From an uncultured Chlamydiae bacterium (GTDB taxonomy: Bacteria; Chlamydiota; Chlamydiia; Chlamydiales; SM23-39), in the NCBI GenBank assembly GCA_963730605.1, contig CAVSSM010000004.1:1-64000 (forward strand): DNA of 64,000 nt, given 5' to 3'. Positions within the stretch are counted from its first letter, which is position 1. The number at the start of each line of letters is the position of its first letter. The notes beneath the pieces were generated by a model that was given only the letters and a program-made list of their open reading frames with translations, had not been told where the DNA came from and did no database searches. The translations under genes and the position numbers were made by a program. Positions 1 to 10,440 of the stretch are shown here, in pieces.

Positions 1-1
1 G

Positions 2-1935
2 GTGGAGTAGGGATGGAAAACCCACCCCCCTCGTCAAACCGGACTGGCGGGTTTCCCGCATCCGGCTTCCTTCGTAATCTCTCGCCATTGGCTTTCACGC
101 AAACATTCGCTTGCTCAGTTGTATCACTCCTAACCGTCTCATCTCGCGGTACCATGTTTTGCTATCCGGTGATTTCTTCCACCCTTTCTGTGAACGCCTT
201 TGCAGGAAGCGATATACTCGCCCATCTGTGTAGGCATTAATCGCACTAAAGGTTTTGCTCGGATAGCCCTTGTGAAAATATTGCCCCCAACCTCGCAGAT
301 ATTGATTCAAGGTCTTCACTACTTCCTCGACTGATTTACATCCATTCTTCGAACTAGTGATTGTCTTGATCTCTTCTCTGGCCTTATTCAGGCTTTTCTT
401 CGACGGTTGTTCCTTGCAATATTGTCTCCAAGGGGCTCTTTTGAAACTTTGCCGCCGCATGGTGAACCCTAGAAAATCTAACTCTTCCTTAGGTTTCGTT
501 AGATCCTTGATCTTTGTTTTCTCCCGATTGATTGTGAGTCCAAATCGCCCTTCTATTTCTCCTTCAACCCATGTTATGATTCTCTTTGTGAGATATCGAG
601 CCATGATGACGAAGTCATCTGCATACCTCACCAGCACTGCTTTTGCCGTGGTTCCAGGTCCTTGCGTTCCATGGAAAACCTTGTCAAACCAGTGCAGGTA
701 AATGTTTGCTAGAAGAGGCGAGATCACGCCCCCTTGGGGCGTGCCTCGATCATTCGGATTCATCGGTTTCCCTTCTTCCCAAATGGGGGCTGTTAACCAT
801 TTGCGGATCAACTTGAGTACTTGTTGATCCGCAATTCTTCTCTCGACTGCCTTCATGAGTTTGTCATGTGGAATCGTATCAAAGTACCCCTTGAGATCCG
901 CATCGTAGACTTGCGTTTTATCCTTGTGGATCGCGTCTTTGATTGCATCAATTGCTTGATGGGCCGACCTTTCGGGCCTAAACCCAAATGAGCATTCCAG
1001 GAAATCCTGTTCAAAGATAGGTTCGATGATATAGAGCAACGCTGCTTGCACCACTCGGTCTTTTACCGTGGGTATTCCCAGTGGTCTCAGTTTGCCGTCG
1101 CTCTTAGGAATATATGTTCGCTTGACTGGCTTGGGCTGGTAGATTCTGTTGCGTATTTCCTCTTGTATTCCCTTGAGGAATCCACTGACACCTTCCGGAC
1201 TTGTTTCAATGCTTCGTATCGTCACATTGTCAACTCCAGCTGCCCCTCCATTCCGCTTAACAACTTTCCAAGCTTCTCGTAGCAGGTCCTCTTTACTCAG
1301 GTGCCCGTACAAGGTGTAGAACCGAAATTTCGGTTCTCGTTTGGCCTTCTGGCCCAGTTTCTCCCTCAATGAAGCAATGCCAGAGATTACTCTCTGTTCC
1401 GTAGTAGTTTCCAATCGGCTCACTCCTTTGTTTCAAAACACAATTACGATAAGGTCCCTTCGCTCCAGAGTCATTACTTCCTTCTTCGCTAATATGGACC
1501 TCTCCGACTCCCTCTTCGATCTCACAACGGTTATTCATTCCCATCGCTCGTTTTCCCAAGTATGGCTTCGCCGATTCACTCATTCCAGTTCACGGCCTCA
1601 TTACTCCAACTTGGACCTAAAGGGTCTCCCAAGTTCCTGACTGAACTTTCATCGCGCGTCCTCCCCTTCCAACCCCGGCAGATCTCCGAGTTGCTTTCAC
1701 CTAGTCTTCACTCAGAGTATTGGTTTCCCCCGCATATGAGGGTTGACCATCTGCATTTAATTATCTAACGAGGCCACATCAGGTTCACGCTTTCGCATTG
1801 GGACTCACGACTTTGTTGACCGAGGCTCCAGGCGTAGAGTTACCTCGTTCACCCGCTCGGCTTCCTACATGTCTAGGTATTTGTCATGGTCAACTCCTTA
1901 CAGCTAACTAGTTCAGCCAAGCTTGCTTGGCGCAC
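2..1935 (-). mobile_element. Group II intron (bacterial class F-like), apparently full length
   Basis: Minus-strand 5' end GTGCG at 1935-1931; domain V/VI AAGCCGGATGCGGGAAACCCGCCAGTCCGGTTTGACGAGGGG...CCTACTCCAC at ~68-2; RT ORF inside. Class assignment is inferred from the KAKREPKFRFYxLY N-terminal motif. Confidence 0.93.
95..1423 (-). CDS. ltrA: Group II intron reverse transcriptase/maturase (no HNH endonuclease)
   Basis: RPLGIPTVKDRVVQ, GTPQGGVISPLLANIYL and YADD motifs, maturase X domain (LNQYLRGWGQYF); 442 aa. Confidence 0.97.
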   Translation of the reverse strand: MSRLETTTEQRVISGIASLREKLGQKAKREPKFRFYTLYGHLSKEDLLREAWKVVKRNGGAAGVDNVTIRSIETSPEGVSGFLKGIQEEIRNRIYQPKPVKRTYIPKSDGKLRPLGIPTVKDRVVQAALLYIIEPIFEQDFLECSFGFRPERSAHQAIDAIKDAIHKDKTQVYDADLKGYFDTIPHDKLMKAVERRIADQQVLKLIRKWLTAPIWEEGKPMNPNDRGTPQGGVISPLLANIYLHWFDKVFHGTQGPGTTAKAVLVRYADDFVIMARYLTKRIITWVEGEIEGRFGLTINREKTKIKDLTKPKEELDFLGFTMRRQSFKRAPWRQYCKEQPSKKSLNKAREEIKTITSSKNGCKSVEEVVKTLNQYLRGWGQYFHKGYPSKTFSAINAYTDGRVYRFLQRRSQKGWKKSPDSKTWYREMRRLGVIQLSKRMFA

Positions 1936-2022
1936 ATACGAATGATAAAAATTTATCTTTCTTCTCATCGTGCCTATCGTTTCATCGTTCAAATCGTTGC
2001 TCCTGCGATGCCGTGTACGGTC

Positions 2023-3570
2023 TTATTTCACCTGGATGGCGGGAGCGACTCGTCGGAATAGGAAGACGACGACGGCGATCCAGCCGAGGCAGACAGCCGC
2101 GGAAACGGCGCTTGTCATGCCGAGGATTTCCGAGCCGAAGATGAGTTGAAGCCCTAAGATGCAAATGGAGACGAAAGCCTTGGCCGACCGGTAGGCGAAG
2201 ACGTCGATGATCGCCTTGGCCCGGAATTTTTCGTCCAGCTTCATCGGGATGTAGAGCATTTCCCGCACCACGCCGAAAAGGGAAAAATCGACCGACTTGA
2301 TGAAGATGTAGGCAAATGAGACGATAGCGAAACTAGGGATGGCCATGGCGAGGACGGCATTTCCAAGAAGCATCAGGGGGAGGAAAAGATGGCTTCCCCG
2401 CACCCCGAAAATGTGAACCATCAAAAAGCCCCCGAGGAACTGCAAGGCTAAACTGAGGGCATTGGTCAAGCCGATCATCCGGCCCACATACTCGGTACGG
2501 AGGTCCTTTTCAAGAATGTTCAGCTCAAGATGGGCATTGAACTGATAGTCCATGAGACCCACCGAGACTTGCATGAAGATGACAAGAAGGAGTATGGCGA
2601 TCAAAAACGGTGAGCGGCGGATGAGGGAAAAGGCAACGCTTGCCCGAGGATCCAGGGTAAGGTCTTGGCTAAAGGAGCTATGTTGGATCGGACTCCTTTT
2701 GAAAGCTGCGCTATAGCTGAAGTAGATGATGAGGTAAAGAGGGAGGGTGCAAAGAAAAAGCTTTTCCGAGCCGATGTCGACCGCAAAAAAACTAGGGAGA
2801 AGGCTGCCGGTAATGGCTCCAAGAGTGCCCATTCCGAAGATGAACCCATAAAGATATTTGGCTCTCGTTGATGGGATCGTGCTGTGGATCATCGACCAGA
2901 GCTGTTTGAACATCAAGACGATGTAAATATCTTTTATAATGAATTGGACGAAGATGAATTTAGGGAAGAGGTGGAGAATCGAGGCTGAGAAAATATGGAC
3001 GGCGGTGACGATCCCCCCGACGGCGCCGATCATCTTCAGAGGGCCTATCTTGGGTAGGAAGCGGTTATAGAGAGTGACGATAAAGAGATTGATGGGGACG
3101 GAGATAAGCCAGACCCAGGGAATCGCATGAGAAGAGAAAGTAGAAAGAAAAATAGCGCTGCTGGAGGGCCTTGTGGCTGCGTATTCGGCGGAGATCGAAA
3201 ACCCGGCAAGAGCCACGAAAAAGATAAACAACTTCTCTTGACGGGTAAACCGCTCGTGAATGAAAAATCGGTTTTGGTGCGACGCCCCACCCCAAAAACG
3301 ATGCGTTTTTGGGGACCCCGGTGGCGGCGGCGGTTTTGACTCAGATTTTTCATCTTCGCTTCCGAGGCGATTCGCTGCGCTCATCTGCTCCGCACTGCGA
3401 AGGTCCACTGGACCTTCTCGTGTTTCCGCAGCCTTGCCTTTGTCAATGTCCCTCGCTCCAGCCGAAAAATCTGAGGAGCTGCTTCGCTCAAAAACAGTCC
3501 CCCGGACTATTTTTGAGTGTCCGCAGTGCCCAATTCCCGTTTTTTCAATCACTCCCAGTATAAAACTCAT
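2023..3570 (-). CDS. NTT/TLC-like (Npt family) nucleotide transporter with a 105-aa N-terminal repeat-derived insertion
   Basis: ~12 TM segments; motifs REMLYIPM..EKFRAKAIIDV and AKYLYG; ATG at 3570 overlaps the stop of the upstream HD gene (ATGA). Confidence 0.8.
   Translation of the reverse strand: MSFILGVIEKTGIGHCGHSKIVRGTVFERSSSSDFSAGARDIDKGKAAETREGPVDLRSAEQMSAANRLGSEDEKSESKPPPPPGSPKTHRFWGGASHQNRFFIHERFTRQEKLFIFFVALAGFSISAEYAATRPSSSAIFLSTFSSHAIPWVWLISVPINLFIVTLYNRFLPKIGPLKMIGAVGGIVTAVHIFSASILHLFPKFIFVQFIIKDIYIVLMFKQLWSMIHSTIPSTRAKYLYGFIFGMGTLGAITGSLLPSFFAVDIGSEKLFLCTLPLYLIIYFSYSAAFKRSPIQHSSFSQDLTLDPRASVAFSLIRRSPFLIAILLLVIFMQVSVGLMDYQFNAHLELNILEKDLRTEYVGRMIGLTNALSLALQFLGGFLMVHIFGVRGSHLFLPLMLLGNAVLAMAIPSFAIVSFAYIFIKSVDFSLFGVVREMLYIPMKLDEKFRAKAIIDVFAYRSAKAFVSICILGLQLIFGSEILGMTSAVSAAVCLGWIAVVVFLFRRVAPAIQVK
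3247..3562. repeat. Composite nested palindromic element (outer element with terminal inverted repeats, inner 3340-3475 palindrome, REP-like hairpin 3288-3322)
   Basis: Outer IR GTGAATGAAAAATCGG / CCGTTTTTTCAATCAC; inner IR CTCAGATTTTTC / GAAAAATCTGAG centred on GAAGGTCCA-C-TGGACCTTC; TTTA direct repeat at both ends on the minus strand. Confidence 0.8.
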
Positions 3571-4880
3571 GCGGGGACCCAATTTTCGAGAAATTCGATG
3601 AGGCTCAGATCCCGCTCCGGAGAGATATAAACCCAGTTCGATTTTTTCGAAGGGACTTTCAAAAGAAGCTCGGAACAATCGCTTGCTTTCTGGATGACGA
3701 CATGGCGCCTTGCGACGGGAAATGAGAGGCGGCCCTGTGGCGGCTGGACCTTATGGAATTCCCAGTCAATGTCCTTGTCGGGAATTTTCTCATTTGTTTT
3801 GAATTCTTTGAGGTCCCGTTCGATCATCGCTTCAGGCAAGGAGATCGCCCGGAACCGCTGCTTTCGGTAAATGATGCAGCGGGCGTCGTCATGGCCGGGC
3901 AGGGCCTGGTCTCGCGCAGCCTTATTCAATGAAGAGATGATGTCGGTATCGCTTAAGCTTAAAAAATCGTCGAGGGTTTGAAACATTTTTGATGAGTAAT
4001 TGGCGCGCATATAGCGTCTTAAATGGAAATGATAGGCTTTTACGGAAGAGTACTGGTAGATCCTCCGATGCATAAAATGGCGCGCCAGAAGAAGAGCTTC
4101 GCACGACTCGAGCCCGTTTTCATCGATGCCGAGCTGCAGTTCGTCTGCCCCATGGTCTGCTGAAGGGAGGATTCGGAGCATTTCGATCAGTTGGTGGTAA
4201 TCGAAAAGACCGTAAACGACGCCAGTGCTCCTGGCATCGCGAAGAAGATAGTCGATCCGGTCAGCGCCGAAAAAGTCGCCAGTGATCAGCTCCGAAACAA
4301 TCCGCTCCCAGGGGGTGAACGACTTTCCCGTTGCGGCTTTCCACCTCCCCTCCCCGACCGAAATTTTCTTGATGTCTTCCACGATGTCCCGTTCGACAAG
4401 ATCTTTCATGTATGTGGGAACGCTCTGGAGCTTCTCCCAAACGGGGCGCAAATAAGGGCTGTCGATAATCTTGAGAGTCCAACTCTCATGGCCCTGCTGC
4501 CCCAAAAAATCCGTTTCGGCGACATGCGAAAACGGGAGATGGCCGAGGTCGTGGCAAAGAGCCGCCATCCGCAGCACGCGGCGCCAATACAGGTAGTCGG
4601 CAGAGCCTTTCCTTGGGACAAAATGAAACACGTCGGCCCGGACTGATTTGCAGATCTTGTCGAACATCAGTGAAACGAGGTACATGACGCCGAGAGAATG
4701 TTCGAACCGGGTATGGGTCGCTCCAGGATAGACCAAATAAGCGATCCCAAGCTGATGGATATAGTGGAGCCTTTGGAAGGGAAGCGAATCGATCAGATCC
4801 TTTTCAAATTCATCGAACGGGATAAATCCATGGACAGGATCGTAAATCTTTTTTTCGGCATGAAGAAAATCTTTAACCAT
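3567..4880 (-). CDS. HD-domain phosphohydrolase (SAMHD1/YwfO-like dNTP triphosphohydrolase family)
   Basis: IYDPVHG, FQRL..I.QLG, HTRFEHSLG, ALCHDLGHLPFSH, ADRIDYLLRD; probable start MVKDF at 4880. Confidence 0.9.
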   Translation of the reverse strand: MVKDFLHAEKKIYDPVHGFIPFDEFEKDLIDSLPFQRLHYIHQLGIAYLVYPGATHTRFEHSLGVMYLVSLMFDKICKSVRADVFHFVPRKGSADYLYWRRVLRMAALCHDLGHLPFSHVAETDFLGQQGHESWTLKIIDSPYLRPVWEKLQSVPTYMKDLVERDIVEDIKKISVGEGRWKAATGKSFTPWERIVSELITGDFFGADRIDYLLRDARSTGVVYGLFDYHQLIEMLRILPSADHGADELQLGIDENGLESCEALLLARHFMHRRIYQYSSVKAYHFHLRRYMRANYSSKMFQTLDDFLSLSDTDIISSLNKAARDQALPGHDDARCIIYRKQRFRAISLPEAMIERDLKEFKTNEKIPDKDIDWEFHKVQPPQGRLSFPVARRHVVIQKASDCSELLLKVPSKKSNWVYISPERDLSLIEFLENWVPA

Positions 4881-4882
4881 AG

Positions 4883-5070
4883 TATACCGCTCGTGATTGA
4901 AAAATCGGTTCTGGCGACGCCCCACCCCAAAACCGATGCGGTTTTGAGGACCCCGGGTGCGCCATCGGGCAGCCACTGAATTTGTGTCCCGCCTGCTTCC
5001 CTTGCAAAAGAGCGAACCCCCGAGCTTTTTCAAGTATCCGCAGCCTTGCCATATTCCCGATTCTTCATGT
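4883..5070. repeat. Second copy of the outer palindromic element with REP-like hairpin
   Basis: TATACCGCTCGTGATTGAAAAATCGG...GCGACGCCCCACCCCAAAA...GGACCCCGG closely matches 3247-3322; the right arm TCCGCAG...ATTCCCG matches 3517-3545. Confidence 0.8.
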
Positions 5071-5116
5071 TTTTTGAGTTAGTCCCCATGAAAAGCAACC
5101 CTTCACCCCAAGAATC

Positions 5117-6118
5117 TCAGGGCCGCGGGAGGCTCTCGTGGATGTAGGTAGCGCTGACTCGAACAAACTCAGCCTTCCTTTGCAATTCCTTGATATTGCG
5201 GGCTCCGCCATAGGTCATACCGCTGCGGATCCCTCCAAGGAGGGCATTGATGAGGTCACAGGCGCTTCCAGACACCGGCCCCCAAAAATCAATCCCTTCG
5301 GCGACAGTCTTGGCTTTGAGCCCCCCATAAAATTCATTTTGAAAATCGATGGAGGCCTGGCCGCGGAACTTCGCTTCCACTCCGCCATGCCCCCCTTTTC
5401 GTTTGGGCGCGGCCGACTCTTGGGTCAGGGCAAAGAGCTTGCCGATCATGACGGTGCTGGCCCCGGCGGCTAAAGCGAGGACGACATCGCGGCTGGTCCT
5501 GATTCCACCATCGGCAATCAGCGGCACTCTGAGCTTTTCTGCGATGAGGGCGCAGTCTTGCACAGCGGTAAATTGAGGGATCCCAAATCCCGTCACCATG
5601 CGGGTCGTACAGGCGGCTCCCGGCCCGACCCCTACTTTTACGGCATCGGCTCCTGCGTTGACGAGGTCATGATAGGCCATTGCAGTGCAAACGTTGCCTG
5701 CGATGATCTCTTTATCGGGATGCCTTTTCTTGAGCTCTTCAATATGCTGGAACATCCGGTCGGAGTGTCCGTGGGCCACGTCGATGCAAGCGCCAACGGC
5801 GCCTAGCTCGAGGAGTTTGGAGGTCTCTTCGATTTTTTGAATCCCGCACGAGATGAACGTTTTGTCTTTATATTTTTTGACCCATTTTTCCTGTTCTTCC
5901 AAAGGGAGGAATCGATGGAGAATGGGAATGGAGCCAGACTCAATGAGGATATCAGCCAGCTCCTGGCTGATGACGGTATCCATATTCGCAGCTAAAACCG
6001 GCATGTTGACTTTGAGTTTTTTCGTCAGCCAGCTTTCCAGCGAGGGCTCAGTTCGAGAAGGAATGTTGTTGAATTGAGGAACAAGAGCAACATCATCATA
6101 GGTAAGGGCGCGGCGCAT
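5117..6118 (-). CDS. IMP dehydrogenase / GMP reductase family protein lacking CBS domains
   Basis: [61 protein letters not shown] before ATG 6118. guaB versus guaC is not resolvable by eye. Confidence 0.88.
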
Positions 6119-6293
6119 ATTTTCTCCTAAACTATGGATTCTATCGAATCTCTCGTATTTAGAACGAGCCCCCATTTTTACCGGGATAGATTCTTGCTCA
6201 TCCCAATATTAATTTTTACAAAATTTTATCAACTTATATTTACTTTTATTTACTATTTATATAAAATTAATATCAGTTAATTAGGATTGTAAT

Positions 6294-7343
6294 ATGTCAA
6301 CAAACCCATTATCAGCATCAGAACATTCTCTTCCCTTATTTGTGAAGCCAGAGGAGTCATATCAGGATAAAACTGAGCCCTCAGCGACCGCTCAAAAACG
6401 GCCCGGGAACTCGATCAGGGAGCTGACTGATAACTTCTTCCGCGATTTCCCATGGGCAGGGCTCTCCCACGCCAATATCAATCTCCTTGGGCAGCCGGCG
6501 CCTGCCTTGAATCTGACGGGATCCCTTTCAAGCCTTATCACGAGCGGCGCGTTCCTCGGACCCATGGCGGCTCAATTTCTGTTTGGATCGGCTCCGATGG
6601 TGATCTTAGCAGCGGGCGAGACGATTTACAGGAAATTGAAAGGCGAGACGCTCCCTCCGGAGGAAATAGCGAAGATCTGGGCTCCCCCAACAGCCGCTGC
6701 GCTCGCTATCCCGATGTGGGACATCGGGCAATTGATCGGCGCTCACCTCGGGGCGACAAGCTCGCTTTTTCAAAGTTCTCCCCAATGGTTCGGCTTATCG
6801 ATCGCGGCAGGGATAATCGCCGCTCCGTTTGCTGGCGTCTTGGAGGGATTCACTCAATGGAGCGTCAAGTATCTCTTCGATGTGGCGACCAATCCCGTGA
6901 CGCGGGAGATGTGGCGTCAAGACCCTGCCCTGATGGGAAAAGTCTTGGTCAAGGAATTGCTGTTGAACGTGACCATTGGCGCGATCCCGGGAGCTATTTG
7001 GCAGGTCGTATTCTTCTTTGCTATGGCAGGCCTTACGGTAGCGCTTGGGCCGGTGGGTGGGATCATCCTCGCCGCACTTCTTGTCGGACTCGCAGTCATG
7101 CTCTGCAACTTTGTCTGCACTCACTTGATCAATAAGGCAAGCGGCGCCATCGACCATTGTATAGGATGGGATACGGAATTGGAAGAGCTGAAAAAACGGA
7201 GCAGAGATAAGTTGTCCACGAAAATCGAGGAATTCCCAACTAAGAATAATGTGGACTCGTCAGAAGCTGAGAACGATGTGGACTTCCAGGAAGTCCAGCC
7301 CCCTCAAACCGGCGAAGCGGGCAACCAAGGCCTGTCGGGATAA
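6294..7343 (+). CDS. Hypothetical multi-pass membrane protein (lineage-specific, possible Inc/effector)
   Basis: 349-aa ORF, Ser/Pro-rich N-terminus, several long hydrophobic stretches, acidic tail, very AT-rich upstream region. Confidence 0.7.
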   Translation: MSTNPLSASEHSLPLFVKPEESYQDKTEPSATAQKRPGNSIRELTDNFFRDFPWAGLSHANINLLGQPAPALNLTGSLSSLITSGAFLGPMAAQFLFGSAPMVILAAGETIYRKLKGETLPPEEIAKIWAPPTAAALAIPMWDIGQLIGAHLGATSSLFQSSPQWFGLSIAAGIIAAPFAGVLEGFTQWSVKYLFDVATNPVTREMWRQDPALMGKVLVKELLLNVTIGAIPGAIWQVVFFFAMAGLTVALGPVGGIILAALLVGLAVMLCNFVCTHLINKASGAIDHCIGWDTELEELKKRSRDKLSTKIEEFPTKNNVDSSEAENDVDFQEVQPPQTGEAGNQGLSG

Positions 7344-8569
7344 TGGAATAAGATCACGCTAATGACAGACAGCCCCGTTAGGCCTCCGAGAAGGAGAAAG
7401 GCCGCCTGGTAACTTCCGGTCAAATCGATGAGCCAGCCAGTCAGCACGGGAGCGATAATCCCGGCTAAGGAAAGGCAGCTCGAGGTGATTCCTTGGGACA
7501 ATCCCGAGCGCTCTTTGGCGATATCGATATTGACGCTGAAAAATGCGGGTTGCGGCATGAGACCAAATCCAAGGCCTAAGCTGAGCAAGATTAAGGAGCT
7601 GCTCAGCGTCGAGGTAAATCCCAGAAGCACAAAACAGATAGCGGCGAGCAGTTGACTGCTCCAGATCACATGGGAGCGGGCGATCCGGCTGCTTCCTGTC
7701 TTTTTGTAGAGCGAGTCGGAAATGATTCCCCCGGCCTTCAAGAAAAGAGCGCCGATGAGCCAAGGGATGGTCAAGTACCAGCCTACGCTCTTCAAGTTCA
7801 GTCCGTGCTGCGATAGGAAATACCCGGGCAACCATAACGTGGCAAAAAAGAGCATGTATCCAAAAGCAAAGTAAGCGGCGTTGTTGGCCATCAACGCGGG
7901 GTGGGTCAAGAGAAACCGCCAATTGATGGGAGATTTTCCCTGGGTCCCTTTGGCGCTGTCGATCAATTTTCGTTCAGCCTCGCTTACAAATTTGCAATCC
8001 TGGGGTTTGTCCTTAAAGAGCATGTACCAGACGACAGCCCAGATCATTCCGATGGCGCTGATCGCGAAAAACATGGTTCGCCAACCGAACTCGGCGACAA
8101 GATAGGAAGTGATGGGAGCGCCGGCCACCGATGAAAGCGGAATGGCGACGAGGCCTAAAGATAATGCCCTCGCCCGTTCTTGGGGAGGCAGCCAATCGCT
8201 GACGGAGCGGGTCATCGCAGGGAAATGGGGACCTTCGGCGACGCCAAGAAAAAAACGGAGCCCCACAAAGCCCCAAAACCCGGTCGCGAACCCCAAAAGT
8301 CCTACACAAAGGGACCAGCTGATCGCGGCAAGAGGCCAGACGATACGCGTTCCCCATTGATCGACGAGCCATCCTCCAAAGGCCGTCAACAGACAATATC
8401 CGAGGCCAAAGGCCGAAAGGATCATGCCAAACTGGGTGTCTGTGAAATGAAATTCCGCCTTAAGCTGACCGATCACAAAGGATATGGCCGACCGGTCGAT
8501 AAAATTCACAAGGGTGATGAAAAAAATGAGTCCCGCAATCACCCACCGATAGTGCGTTGTCTTTATCAT
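7304..8569 (-). CDS. MFS transporter (ACS/D-galactonate-like)
   Basis: VNFIDRSAIS, GGWLVDQWG, LRFFLGVAEG..FP, WLPPQERARA; start MIKTTHYRW overlaps the upstream stop. Confidence 0.9.
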   Translation of the reverse strand: MIKTTHYRWVIAGLIFFITLVNFIDRSAISFVIGQLKAEFHFTDTQFGMILSAFGLGYCLLTAFGGWLVDQWGTRIVWPLAAISWSLCVGLLGFATGFWGFVGLRFFLGVAEGPHFPAMTRSVSDWLPPQERARALSLGLVAIPLSSVAGAPITSYLVAEFGWRTMFFAISAIGMIWAVVWYMLFKDKPQDCKFVSEAERKLIDSAKGTQGKSPINWRFLLTHPALMANNAAYFAFGYMLFFATLWLPGYFLSQHGLNLKSVGWYLTIPWLIGALFLKAGGIISDSLYKKTGSSRIARSHVIWSSQLLAAICFVLLGFTSTLSSSLILLSLGLGFGLMPQPAFFSVNIDIAKERSGLSQGITSSCLSLAGIIAPVLTGWLIDLTGSYQAAFLLLGGLTGLSVISVILFHYPDRPWLPASPV

Positions 8570-9525
8570 GTTGTTAACACCTTTTTGCGATCCGCTTCTT
8601 CTTTTCTCGTTCTGTAAAGGATATACAAGTTGCTGCCTACGATTACGACCGTGCCAACCAGCGTATAGGCATCCGGTGTCTTGTTCCACCAAGTAAAGTC
8701 GAGCGCCACAACCCAGAAAAAAGTCGAATAATCGATCGGCGCGAGGATCGAAGCTTGGGCGAATCGGAGGGATTGGGCAATGGCATATTGAGCCCCTGCG
8801 GTTAAGGCGCCAACGACCGCAAAAAGGCCCCAATGGGACCATAGCATCGGTTTCCAGACGAGTGTAAAGCGAGGCGGCAAAAACCCTGGCAAGGCATTGG
8901 AGATCAAGGCTAAAACCATCATCGCCGCGAGCATCACAACGTTCGGGTAAATCGCAATCGCTAGGCTATGTTCCGTAGAAGCAAGGCGCCTCATTAAGAT
9001 TTTATTCAACGCCCCTAAAAAGGTCCCAAATAGAACGAGGAGGGCGGCCGATTCGAGGATATGGGATCCGGGGCGCATGGCGATCACGACTCCGACAAGT
9101 CCGATGCCCACTGCGATCCAGCGCTCCGGGGGGACCTTTTCCTTCAACATGATGGCGCCGAGGATAATCATAAAGAAAGGAGAGGTGTAACTGAAGGTGT
9201 AGATCGTCGTTAACGATGCGAGGGAAAAAGCGAACATGAAAGAGAAAGTATAGAACAAGTTGATGGTTAGGCGGGTTAAGTGCCTTGAAGGGTGTTGCGT
9301 ATAGAGCACCTTGCGCGGGCCGCCATGAAAATAGGTTGCGATCAAAAGAGGCACAAGCCGTGTAAAGGCGCGAAGAAACGTTGCCTGGCAGACGCTATAA
9401 GTCCCCATCAAATGTTTGATGAAGGCGTCCGATAATGGATAGAGCGCCAATCCTAAGATCATCAACGCGACCCCTAAGACGGCCCGGTTGTGGAGCCTCC
9501 GATCTGCGCTCTCAGCAATTGTCAT
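8566..9525 (-). CDS. DMT/EamA family permease
   Basis: Two EamA repeats; LKEKV..RW.AV.IG..GV, ASILAPIDY. Confidence 0.9.
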   Translation of the reverse strand: MTIAESADRRLHNRAVLGVALMILGLALYPLSDAFIKHLMGTYSVCQATFLRAFTRLVPLLIATYFHGGPRKVLYTQHPSRHLTRLTINLFYTFSFMFAFSLASLTTIYTFSYTSPFFMIILGAIMLKEKVPPERWIAVGIGLVGVVIAMRPGSHILESAALLVLFGTFLGALNKILMRRLASTEHSLAIAIYPNVVMLAAMMVLALISNALPGFLPPRFTLVWKPMLWSHWGLFAVVGALTAGAQYAIAQSLRFAQASILAPIDYSTFFWVVALDFTWWNKTPDAYTLVGTVVIVGSNLYILYRTRKEEADRKKVLTT

Positions 9526-9580
9526 AGTTCTCCCGAAAATGCATCAACAACCCTACCAAGAAATTTGCTTAAGTAAAAGA

Positions 9581-9715
9581 AAAATCGGCTGGAGCGTGGC
9601 CACGACAGGCTTAGGGAGTGTTCCGTCTATCGAAGCGATGTTTGGGGACCCCGGTTCCACCCCAACCATCGAAGCGATGTTTGGGGACCCCGGTTCCGGG
9701 ACAGAAAAATCTGGG
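9581..9715. repeat. Palindromic-element copy containing a 30-bp direct repeat (9629-9658, 9668-9697) of the REP-like hairpin
   Basis: ATCGAAGCGATGTTTGGGGACCCCGGTTCC twice; flanks TCGGCTGGAGCG and GAAAAATCTG match the inner element at 3340-3475 in reverse orientation. Confidence 0.75.
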
Positions 9716-9807
9716 CGCAAATTCCTTTGAAAACTTTTATAGTCGGGTACTAGCGTGAAAGAATTCCATTTGCTATTATTTTAAATACCAGTTTCTGGAG
9801 GAGTGGA

Positions 9808-10440
9808 ATGCGATATTTACCGTTTTTATTTGTTGCCGTTTTCGCTGTAGGTTGCTGCAGCCGTTGTAAAGATCAAAGCTCGACGCGCTATCATGAAGAT
9901 GGCCGCGCAAAGCCTGTCGCCGCGATGCCTGCGATCATCGATACAACTTCTTTCGATGTTCCCTGGAGTATCTCGGAAGAGTTGACATCTTCGATCGCGC
10001 AAATGATTTCGAGGGGCGGTCAAATTATCATCCAATCTCAAGACGATTTTGCGATCGCATCGAATCCATTCGGCGGCGATCTTTCCTGGATGAAAAGGGA
10101 ATTCCAAAATCAAGAATTCGCAGTTTTTCTGGAACTTGTCGAACATGAATTTGTCCCTTCCTCCAATAACCCCTCAGACAGGGACTATGCCAATAACCTC
10201 AAGATGGGCATTCGGGTGAGAGTCATCGATTTGCGCGGGTCCGATCCAAAGATCGTTCTCCAGGAAATGATCCGCGACTCCTATTACATCCCCAAAACCT
10301 ACTTTCCAGTCGATTACAATACCGTTACTTGGGGGACCGAAGACTACAAGGATTCTCCAATGGGAACCGCTCATGCCAAGATCGCCCAGGAAGTCGCTTT
10401 GCGGGTGAGCGAGTATATCCTTTTGGCCAAAAGTAGATGA
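9808..10440 (+). CDS. Chlamydial lipoprotein (CT253-like)
   Basis: Lipobox AVGC; RYHEDGRAKP; synteny with the CPBP protease as in Chlamydia. Confidence 0.8.
   Translation: MRYLPFLFVAVFAVGCCSRCKDQSSTRYHEDGRAKPVAAMPAIIDTTSFDVPWSISEELTSSIAQMISRGGQIIIQSQDDFAIASNPFGGDLSWMKREFQNQEFAVFLELVEHEFVPSSNNPSDRDYANNLKMGIRVRVIDLRGSDPKIVLQEMIRDSYYIPKTYFPVDYNTVTWGTEDYKDSPMGTAHAKIAQEVALRVSEYILLAKSR

Follow-up and report, generated by a model that had tools for sequence, protein, structure and literature searches.

The question raised by this locus is how a long palindromic stretch came to lie, open and in frame, at the very start of a bacterial gene, and what has kept its frame open. In the window (the whole stretch of chlamydial DNA that was analysed, 64,000 nucleotides), a gene for a putative nucleotide transporter carries 315 nt directly after its first three codons (M-S-F), which are in frame and contain no stop codon. 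The original prediction drew on the Rickettsia palindromic elements (RPEs), which Ogata et al. reportedly described in 2000 and 2002 (as cited in PMC10969869 and PMC3733652), and proposed that this lineage has an analogous, repeat-driven process of peptide insertion, at work here through successive nested insertions under selection for frame.

The anatomy of the insert was established by deletion and by comparison with orthologues. Removal of the insert from the transporter gene restores MSFTRQEKLFIF, and the orthologue of the sister species G003, in which the TA site is empty, reads MRFTAQEKLFIFF (MRFTAQEK), which bears out that exactly 315 nt were added in frame and without a stop. The transporter ATG (3570) and the stop codon of the upstream HD gene overlap as ATGA, as had been predicted, and all features of the proposed three-layer build were found, namely the outer inverted repeat (3256-3271/3537-3552), the inner palindrome and the REP-like hairpin (Table 1). 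The insert folds with -128 kcal/mol (z = -5.8 against 100 shuffles), a stability in keeping with a palindromic RNA. Covariation gave no support to the consensus fold, with two-sided change in just 1 of 97 pairs, because the family copies are too alike; a search of window positions 1-10000 against Rfam returned no match for the insert, the sole match being a group II intron fragment (Table 1). One detail had to be corrected: the target duplication is TA and not TTTA. Nine of 12 aligned copies of the element end in GGTA-TA and the transporter copy alone among the 12 in GGTT-TA, the apparent TTTA resulting from this single changed base.

Table 1. Features of the transporter locus and their positions in the window; the 5' and 3' ends of the insert are given in coding orientation
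Feature	Position	Strand	Remarks
Group II intron reverse transcriptase/maturase gene	2..1423	-	RVT_1 and GIIM; Rfam Intron_gpII at 2-70
Transporter host gene, distant NTT/TLC-family (ATP/ADP-translocase-like) MFS	2023..3570	-	515 aa with insert, 410 aa without
Modular MITE	3246..3562	-	313 nt plus both TA target copies; net 315 nt = 105 codons; codon 3/4 of transporter gene
Terminal inverted repeat, 3' end	3246..3271	-	Includes TA target copy 3247-3246; 19/24 against IS630 left end
45-nt (15-codon) REP-like hairpin module	3284..3328	-	Stem-loop 3290-3314; missing in 219- and 203-nt members
Inner 136-nt arm	3340..3475	-	Closed by 12-bp inverted repeat (3340-3351/3464-3475)
Central 66-nt hairpin module	3368..3433	-	27 genome matches; also in another MITE family
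51-nt (17-codon) hairpin module	3480..3530	-	Hairpin 3487-3517; missing in three 264-nt members and the 219-nt member
Terminal inverted repeat, 5' end	3537..3562	-	Includes TA target copy 3562-3561; 16/24 against IS630 left end
HD-domain phosphohydrolase gene	3567..4880	-	Upstream of transporter; its TGA overlaps the transporter ATG, overlap kept in G003
Second MITE	4883..5079	+	Same terminal repeat and REP-like module; between HD gene and IMPDH/GMP-reductase-family gene

Contigs from other sequencing runs confirmed that the insert is not an assembly artefact. A contig of run X2 spans one insert junction with 3 differences in 545 nt, contigs of run X5, a strain ~96% identical with the insert at the same site, span both junctions (23/677 and 28/716 differences), and the joint of an X7 contig leaves out exactly the 315 nt, that is, an empty allele. 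Together with the orthologues that lack it, these bridging contigs and the X7 skip show the insert to be real, recent and polymorphic among relatives; it differs by ~3% from the family consensus. The second MITE of the window is absent in X7 and is replaced in X5 by ~235 other letters, so the spacer upstream of the HD gene has been struck independently.

The host gene scores 36.6 bits with PF03219, above the cut-off, and lies far below the cut-off of TIGR00769, which makes it a distant paralogue of the ATP/ADP translocases. Its best solved relatives by sequence and fold are NTT1 of C. pneumoniae and AtNTT1 of Arabidopsis (9j3n, E 1.7e-19), and ATP/ADP translocases are its top Foldseek matches; as these matches share 15-18% identity, the label nucleotide transporter is fair but distant, and the substrate would be a nucleotide judging from homology and from the HD-phosphohydrolase neighbour. 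MFS N-termini are cytoplasmic and tolerant of tails, and ATGA overlaps couple translation. In the predicted structure residues 1-105 have a pLDDT below 50 and the core is modelled confidently as helices; the 105-aa insert peptide is thus predicted to be disordered. The transporter core has some match in all 61 genomes searched, and among the 29 best orthologue loci, the closest being that of G003 (93% identical), 27 cover the N-terminus and none of these 27 shares the extension. Nor is a translation start downstream of the insert apparent: in-frame starts within the insert lie at residues 7, 55 and 63, no ATG follows it before residue 180, and TTG/GTG codons, present at 114 and 119, fall in the first membrane helix. 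Unless the RNA is processed, the full transporter must therefore bear some or all of the peptide, which is presumably translated, and transport function is probably retained.

The insert belongs to a family of repeats. Six full copies of the whole three-layer composite, 92-96% identical and with net lengths of 315 (four times), 310 and 316 nt, are present in the genome (G000). The copies end in TA-TACC...GGTA-TA, are multicopy, have terminal inverted repeats and encode no transposase, as expected of a MITE. An empty TA is found in the orthologues of the transporter, the secretin and RlmM (G003) and of RecD2 (G002); the empty sites of the sulfatase and of Wzc are not TA in the relatives compared. 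On these sequence features the transporter insert is best classed as a TA-targeting MITE of IS630 type and not as an RPE proper. At the DNA level the element has matches in 13 of the 36 same-family genomes and in none of the 24 that belong to other families in the order, and an exact terminal-repeat scan gave 20 loci, of which all phylum-labelled ones are Chlamydiota. Peptide searches gave five matches each; the four examined were copies from this or a near-identical genome, plus one diverged copy in P0005. In this protein, from another genome, a 55%-identical version of the insert peptide lies close to the N-terminus, suggesting that inserts of this kind can be retained and diverge over time. 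At three loci of related genomes (L129, L131 and L134) the element end adjoins an in-frame ATG that opens a long open frame; here the element may target or recreate gene starts and may supply a purine-rich leader.

The transporter is not the only gene affected. Six of the 12 two-ended family copies lie in frame in genes, all six using the same frame: in addition to the transporter (105 aa after residue 3), these are RecD2 (105 aa at residue 337; peptide in 0 of 4 orthologues), a type II secretin (88 aa after the signal peptide; 0 of 3), a sulfatase fusion (88 aa; 0 of 2), a Wzc-like protein (73 aa; 0 of 4) and an RlmK-like methyltransferase (105 aa near the start), whose single distant orthologue (G014) has an alignment that stops short of the insertion site. 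In the RecD2 copy (L065:1858-2186) a micro-inversion has turned round the loop within the 51-nt hairpin compared to the other copies, and the frame stays open. The remaining six copies comprise two at stop codons, which add short tails, three that are intergenic and one at the SpoU/RlmM junction (L066:1148-1471; G000 C7:123653-123964), which has +1 and -6 changes. There the SpoU stop overlaps a terminal-repeat TTG that is in frame with RlmM, and the element may have supplied a new coupled start or may have damaged the gene. Partial family copies are in frame in dnaX and in one hypothetical protein. In-frame insertion has thus occurred repeatedly in unrelated intact genes and is missing from their orthologues.

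Other families of elements behave likewise. Searching for the pattern of paired TATAC ends yielded 86 candidates, of which 80 fell in multi-member groups, and 106 full elements once extended. Members of other MITE families lie in frame in genes for a CT351-family outer-membrane protein (89 aa; 0 of 4 relatives), the E2 subunit of a 2-oxoacid dehydrogenase (68 aa; 0 of 6) and a fused E1 subunit (54 aa). The 45-nt REP-like module, alone or as a dimer, lengthens nadK (+25 aa; 0 of 29 relatives), plsX (+12 aa; 0 of 28 informative relatives) and priA (+13 aa; 0 of 4 informative relatives), each a single-copy gene with one match in G000, and similar candidate inserts occur in murG, menE, ackA, suhB, tamB and msrB (genes named by profile matches). 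In MsrB (L239:316-1128; G000 C5:65815-66627) the REP-like hairpin codes for about ten tandem units of 12 aa each ahead of the catalytic domain, and the SuhB-like inositol monophosphatase (L118; G000 C1:697556-697703) has three spaced hairpin-coded units. A hairpin-like stretch is also in frame in L125:234-1193 (G000 C7:79733-80695), whose matches to AAC(6')-type acetyltransferase and cupin are weak and well below cut-offs, and a MITE lies just upstream of a P-type proton ATPase of plant/fungal type (L067; G000 C7:170163-172787; TIGR01647 above cut-off). Altogether 57 of 202 repeat loci fall in long open frames, a figure that includes many upstream of true starts or in shadow frames, which were left uncounted. 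Repeat-driven peptide insertion in this lineage, as put forward in the original prediction, is borne out by the many genes affected.

The role of selection was then considered at the level of frame and of sequence. A script called 8 of the 106 full MITEs gene-internal, 7 of them in frame and open; the eighth (C1:412465) is a gene junction on inspection, and the in-frame sulfatase copy was overlooked. These calls, and the estimate that ~80% of the genome is coding, come from a purpose-made, rough hexamer gene model. Lengths are divisible by three in 7 of 8 gene-internal elements compared to 43 of 83 others (p = 0.07) and, at cluster level, in 18 of 38 (p = 0.08). Among 5000 dinucleotide shuffles of the consensus, 46% keep at least one of the six frames open (7% for a given frame), so that an open frame by itself does not show that selection has acted on the element. 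For six element-bearing hosts (five in frame and RlmM), dN/dS against G003 is 0.09-0.19. When coding copies are compared with the family consensus, 9 synonymous and 34 non-synonymous changes are counted, which is about neutral and not lower than in non-coding copies (15:35), and selection on the peptide sequence is rejected on this basis. Against X5, the insert codons show 0 synonymous and 6 non-synonymous changes and the transporter core codons 18 synonymous and 14 non-synonymous (p = 9e-5 against a neutral share of 0.76), counted from 40 of 125 difference rows in contigs that vary in depth and may mix strains; in the X5 contig physically joined to the insert, the core split alone is 7 to 8 (p = 0.046). 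The host genes are under purifying selection and the insert peptide drifts neutrally. The in-frame survivors and the neutral peptide changes together argue that host survival filters for frame and that the peptide is a passenger, so the proposed selection for frame stands as far as it acts through the host and falls as far as it concerns the peptide.

It could be argued that the insertion inactivated the transporter, leaving a young pseudogene that is still open by chance of a recent event. A strong hairpin begins ~8 nt past the ATG, the recency of the insertion (~3% from consensus) limits the power to detect relaxed selection, and every intact copy has one of its six frames open, which means that any lone in-frame case needs no selection. 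We nevertheless regard an inactivated transporter as unlikely, given that the site is common to a strain ~4% divergent and the core has a synonymous excess. Amino-acid changes on this branch are not in excess either, with 11 against 14 on the G003 branch for the transporter, 14 against 9 for the secretin and 14 against 33 for the Wzc-like protein, and thus no general excess in element-bearing hosts in comparison with G003. Moreover, the single-copy genes nadK, plsX and priA bear in-frame inserts that relatives lack.

The order of events can be read from the modules. They are far from single-copy: the 45-nt REP-like, central 66-nt and 51-nt modules have 124, 27 and 15 matches in the genome. The REP-like module occurs as tandem repeats elsewhere and solitary in housekeeping genes, 28 of its 124 matches falling outside longer repeats, and the inner 136-nt arm is confined to the composite family (11 of 11 matches in long repeat loci). 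Shorter members of the family include three of 264 nt without the 51-nt module, one of 219 nt that also lacks the 45-nt module, and others of 203 and 161 nt with other parts missing. The modules that vary among copies have sizes that are all multiples of three (51, 45 and 6 nt), and contigs of related strains show module loss and tandem gain somewhere in their genomes, one joint stepping back 45 nt. Such variation is what would be expected if the layers had been inserted one after another into the transporter gene, each held in frame by selection. Yet the composite is already whole at six G000 sites and at a seventh in G003 (94% identical), where it lies elsewhere and the transporter site is empty, which argues for insertion in one step; the one empty allele observed, that of X7, omits all 315 nt, and no target duplication flanks the 51-nt module. 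Successive nested insertion at the transporter is therefore very improbable, and this part of the original prediction has to be given up. Removal of the insert from the RNA by splicing, or its bypass by ribosome hopping, with the protein left unaltered, is hardly credible, for although the paired ends of the insert form one long stem that brings the flanks together and the genome has a group II intron maturase, the element has neither intron features nor an Rfam match, and a bypass would make frame irrelevant, yet the gene-internal survivors are in frame and open.

A candidate for the mover came from a terminal-repeat search, which identified an IS630 element of 1121 nt in 14 copies (99.9-100% identical) that codes for a 347-aa transposase (NF033545, 218 bits; cut-off 100); 13 of the copies have TA at both sides. 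Its left end matches the ends of the MITE copy in the RlmK gene at 21/24 and 17/24 bases; the close match is found at one MITE end only, with 16-18/24 at the other. The ends of two other IS630 groups in the genome differ from those of the MITE. These groups (G000 C1:429562, and C1:18178 with its copies; 6 and 9 matches) have CTAG-type ends and often adjoin or sit inside each other. The MITE ends thus match an autonomous IS630 of the same genome (21/24 at the best end), and from this terminal-repeat match we infer that the MITE is likely mobilised in trans by the intact 14-copy IS630. The lone hairpin modules in nadK, plsX and priA are without terminal repeats, so IS630 alone is not a sufficient explanation for them. 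A RAYT was considered as their mover and rejected, as a profile search of the genome (83% complete) found no RAYT gene flanked by REP hairpins. The only Y1_Tnp (PF01797) match is weak and adjoins a broken TnpB-like frame; of the three modules, just a single 51-nt copy lies in the vicinity, at a distance of 2 kb. The locus concerned (L236; G000 C2:394036-397197) looks like a broken IS200/IS605-like remnant, in which the weak match lies beside TnpB-like fragments.

Taken together, we hold it probable (about 0.8) that an IS630-type MITE built of hairpin modules was pasted whole into the transporter gene, that its frame was kept by host survival and that its peptide is a neutral passenger. Hairpin modules would be gained, lost and swapped among related MITEs, giving rise to a non-autonomous composite of the IS630/Tc1-mariner type. 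The intact IS630 transposase would recognise the shared terminal repeat in trans and paste the whole composite at a TA. Most gene-internal insertions would break their host and be purged; survivors would be those with a length divisible by three that come to be read in the only open frame among the six, at a site tolerating an extra hydrophilic loop, such as an N-terminus, a position past a signal peptide or a linker. In the transporter, ribosomes ending the HD gene would reinitiate at the overlapping ATG and translate across the insert, and the product would be a transporter with a disordered 105-aa N-terminal tail and an intact membrane core.

The available parts of the literature report working genes that contain palindromes in frame for Rickettsia (PMC10969869, PMC1458961), where RPEs measure ~105-150 bp (table in PMC3184786; PMC10969869) and 53 of 526 palindromic elements of R. 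bellii lie in coding genes (PMC1458961), as well as for Wolbachia (PMC4224334), the REPs of O. terrae (PMC3733652, with a list of intragenic REPs in its Additional file 3) and the BRE of Bordetella (PMC3184786). As far as these descriptions go, the chlamydial elements resemble RPEs and WPEs in being multicopy palindromes, in frame in unrelated and apparently working genes of an intracellular-type bacterium, with one peptide common to many hosts; priA has been struck in Wolbachia too (PMC4224334). They differ from RPEs in size (up to 315 nt, 105 aa), and from both in having modules common to several families and a matching intact 14-copy transposase. Two pneumococcal elements are also alike by the available description (PMC3049150): RUP has terminal repeats like those of IS630-Spn1 and a proposed movement in trans, and BOX is a composite whose internal modules vary in number and which often provides the stop codon of a gene, as two chlamydial copies do. 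Gene overlaps of BOX, however, are mainly described at 3' ends or as BOX-encoded frames (PMC3049150), whereas whole chlamydial copies lie inside RecD2, the secretin, E1/E2 dehydrogenase subunits and others. The intragenic REPs of Opitutus terrae and R. conorii (PMC3733652) and the Bordetella BRE and ERIC fusions (PMC3184786) are reported, in the portions available, as short hairpins, single or dimeric, that add 12-30 aa to housekeeping genes. The lone 45-nt module in nadK, plsX and priA is similar, but the chlamydial hairpin doubles as a cargo module of TA MITEs. By analogy, then, a chlamydial lineage shows the phenomenon known from RPEs and WPEs, its inserts being larger and a transposase being available as a candidate mover. 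No report of in-frame palindromic insertion in Chlamydiae was found in the literature searched, most subscription journals being beyond its reach.

The literature consulted, as far as available, names no mover for coding palindromes of the Rickettsia/Wolbachia type, whereas the chlamydial elements come with a candidate. Because their inserts, which are larger (up to 105 aa), are recent and strain-polymorphic and have a counterpart in an intact multicopy IS630, the identity of the mover, the filtering for frame and any cost to the host protein are each testable in E. coli. Annotators of these chlamydial genomes should be wary, since MITE peptides distort the starts and lengths of genes as well as their 'novel domains'. 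More tentatively, an RPE-like life cycle may be in progress, in which an active IS630 moves MITE lineages that have been shaped to be frame-neutral, with an open frame and with total and module lengths divisible by three, and inserts of 54-105 aa erode to remnants of 12-25 aa (nadK, plsX, priA) or expand by slippage as in msrB; we consider this possible but doubtful. The modal length is divisible by three in 9 of 12 multicopy clusters, four of the nine sharing a size of 162 nt, and a frame is open in 26 of 38 clusters compared to 16.5 expected. The clusters are related, however, and the count is inflated by survivors in genes; in the largest family (20 copies), all frames of the representative are closed. 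If frame-neutral MITE lineages do exist, the 80% of the genome that is coding would have been opened to insertion.
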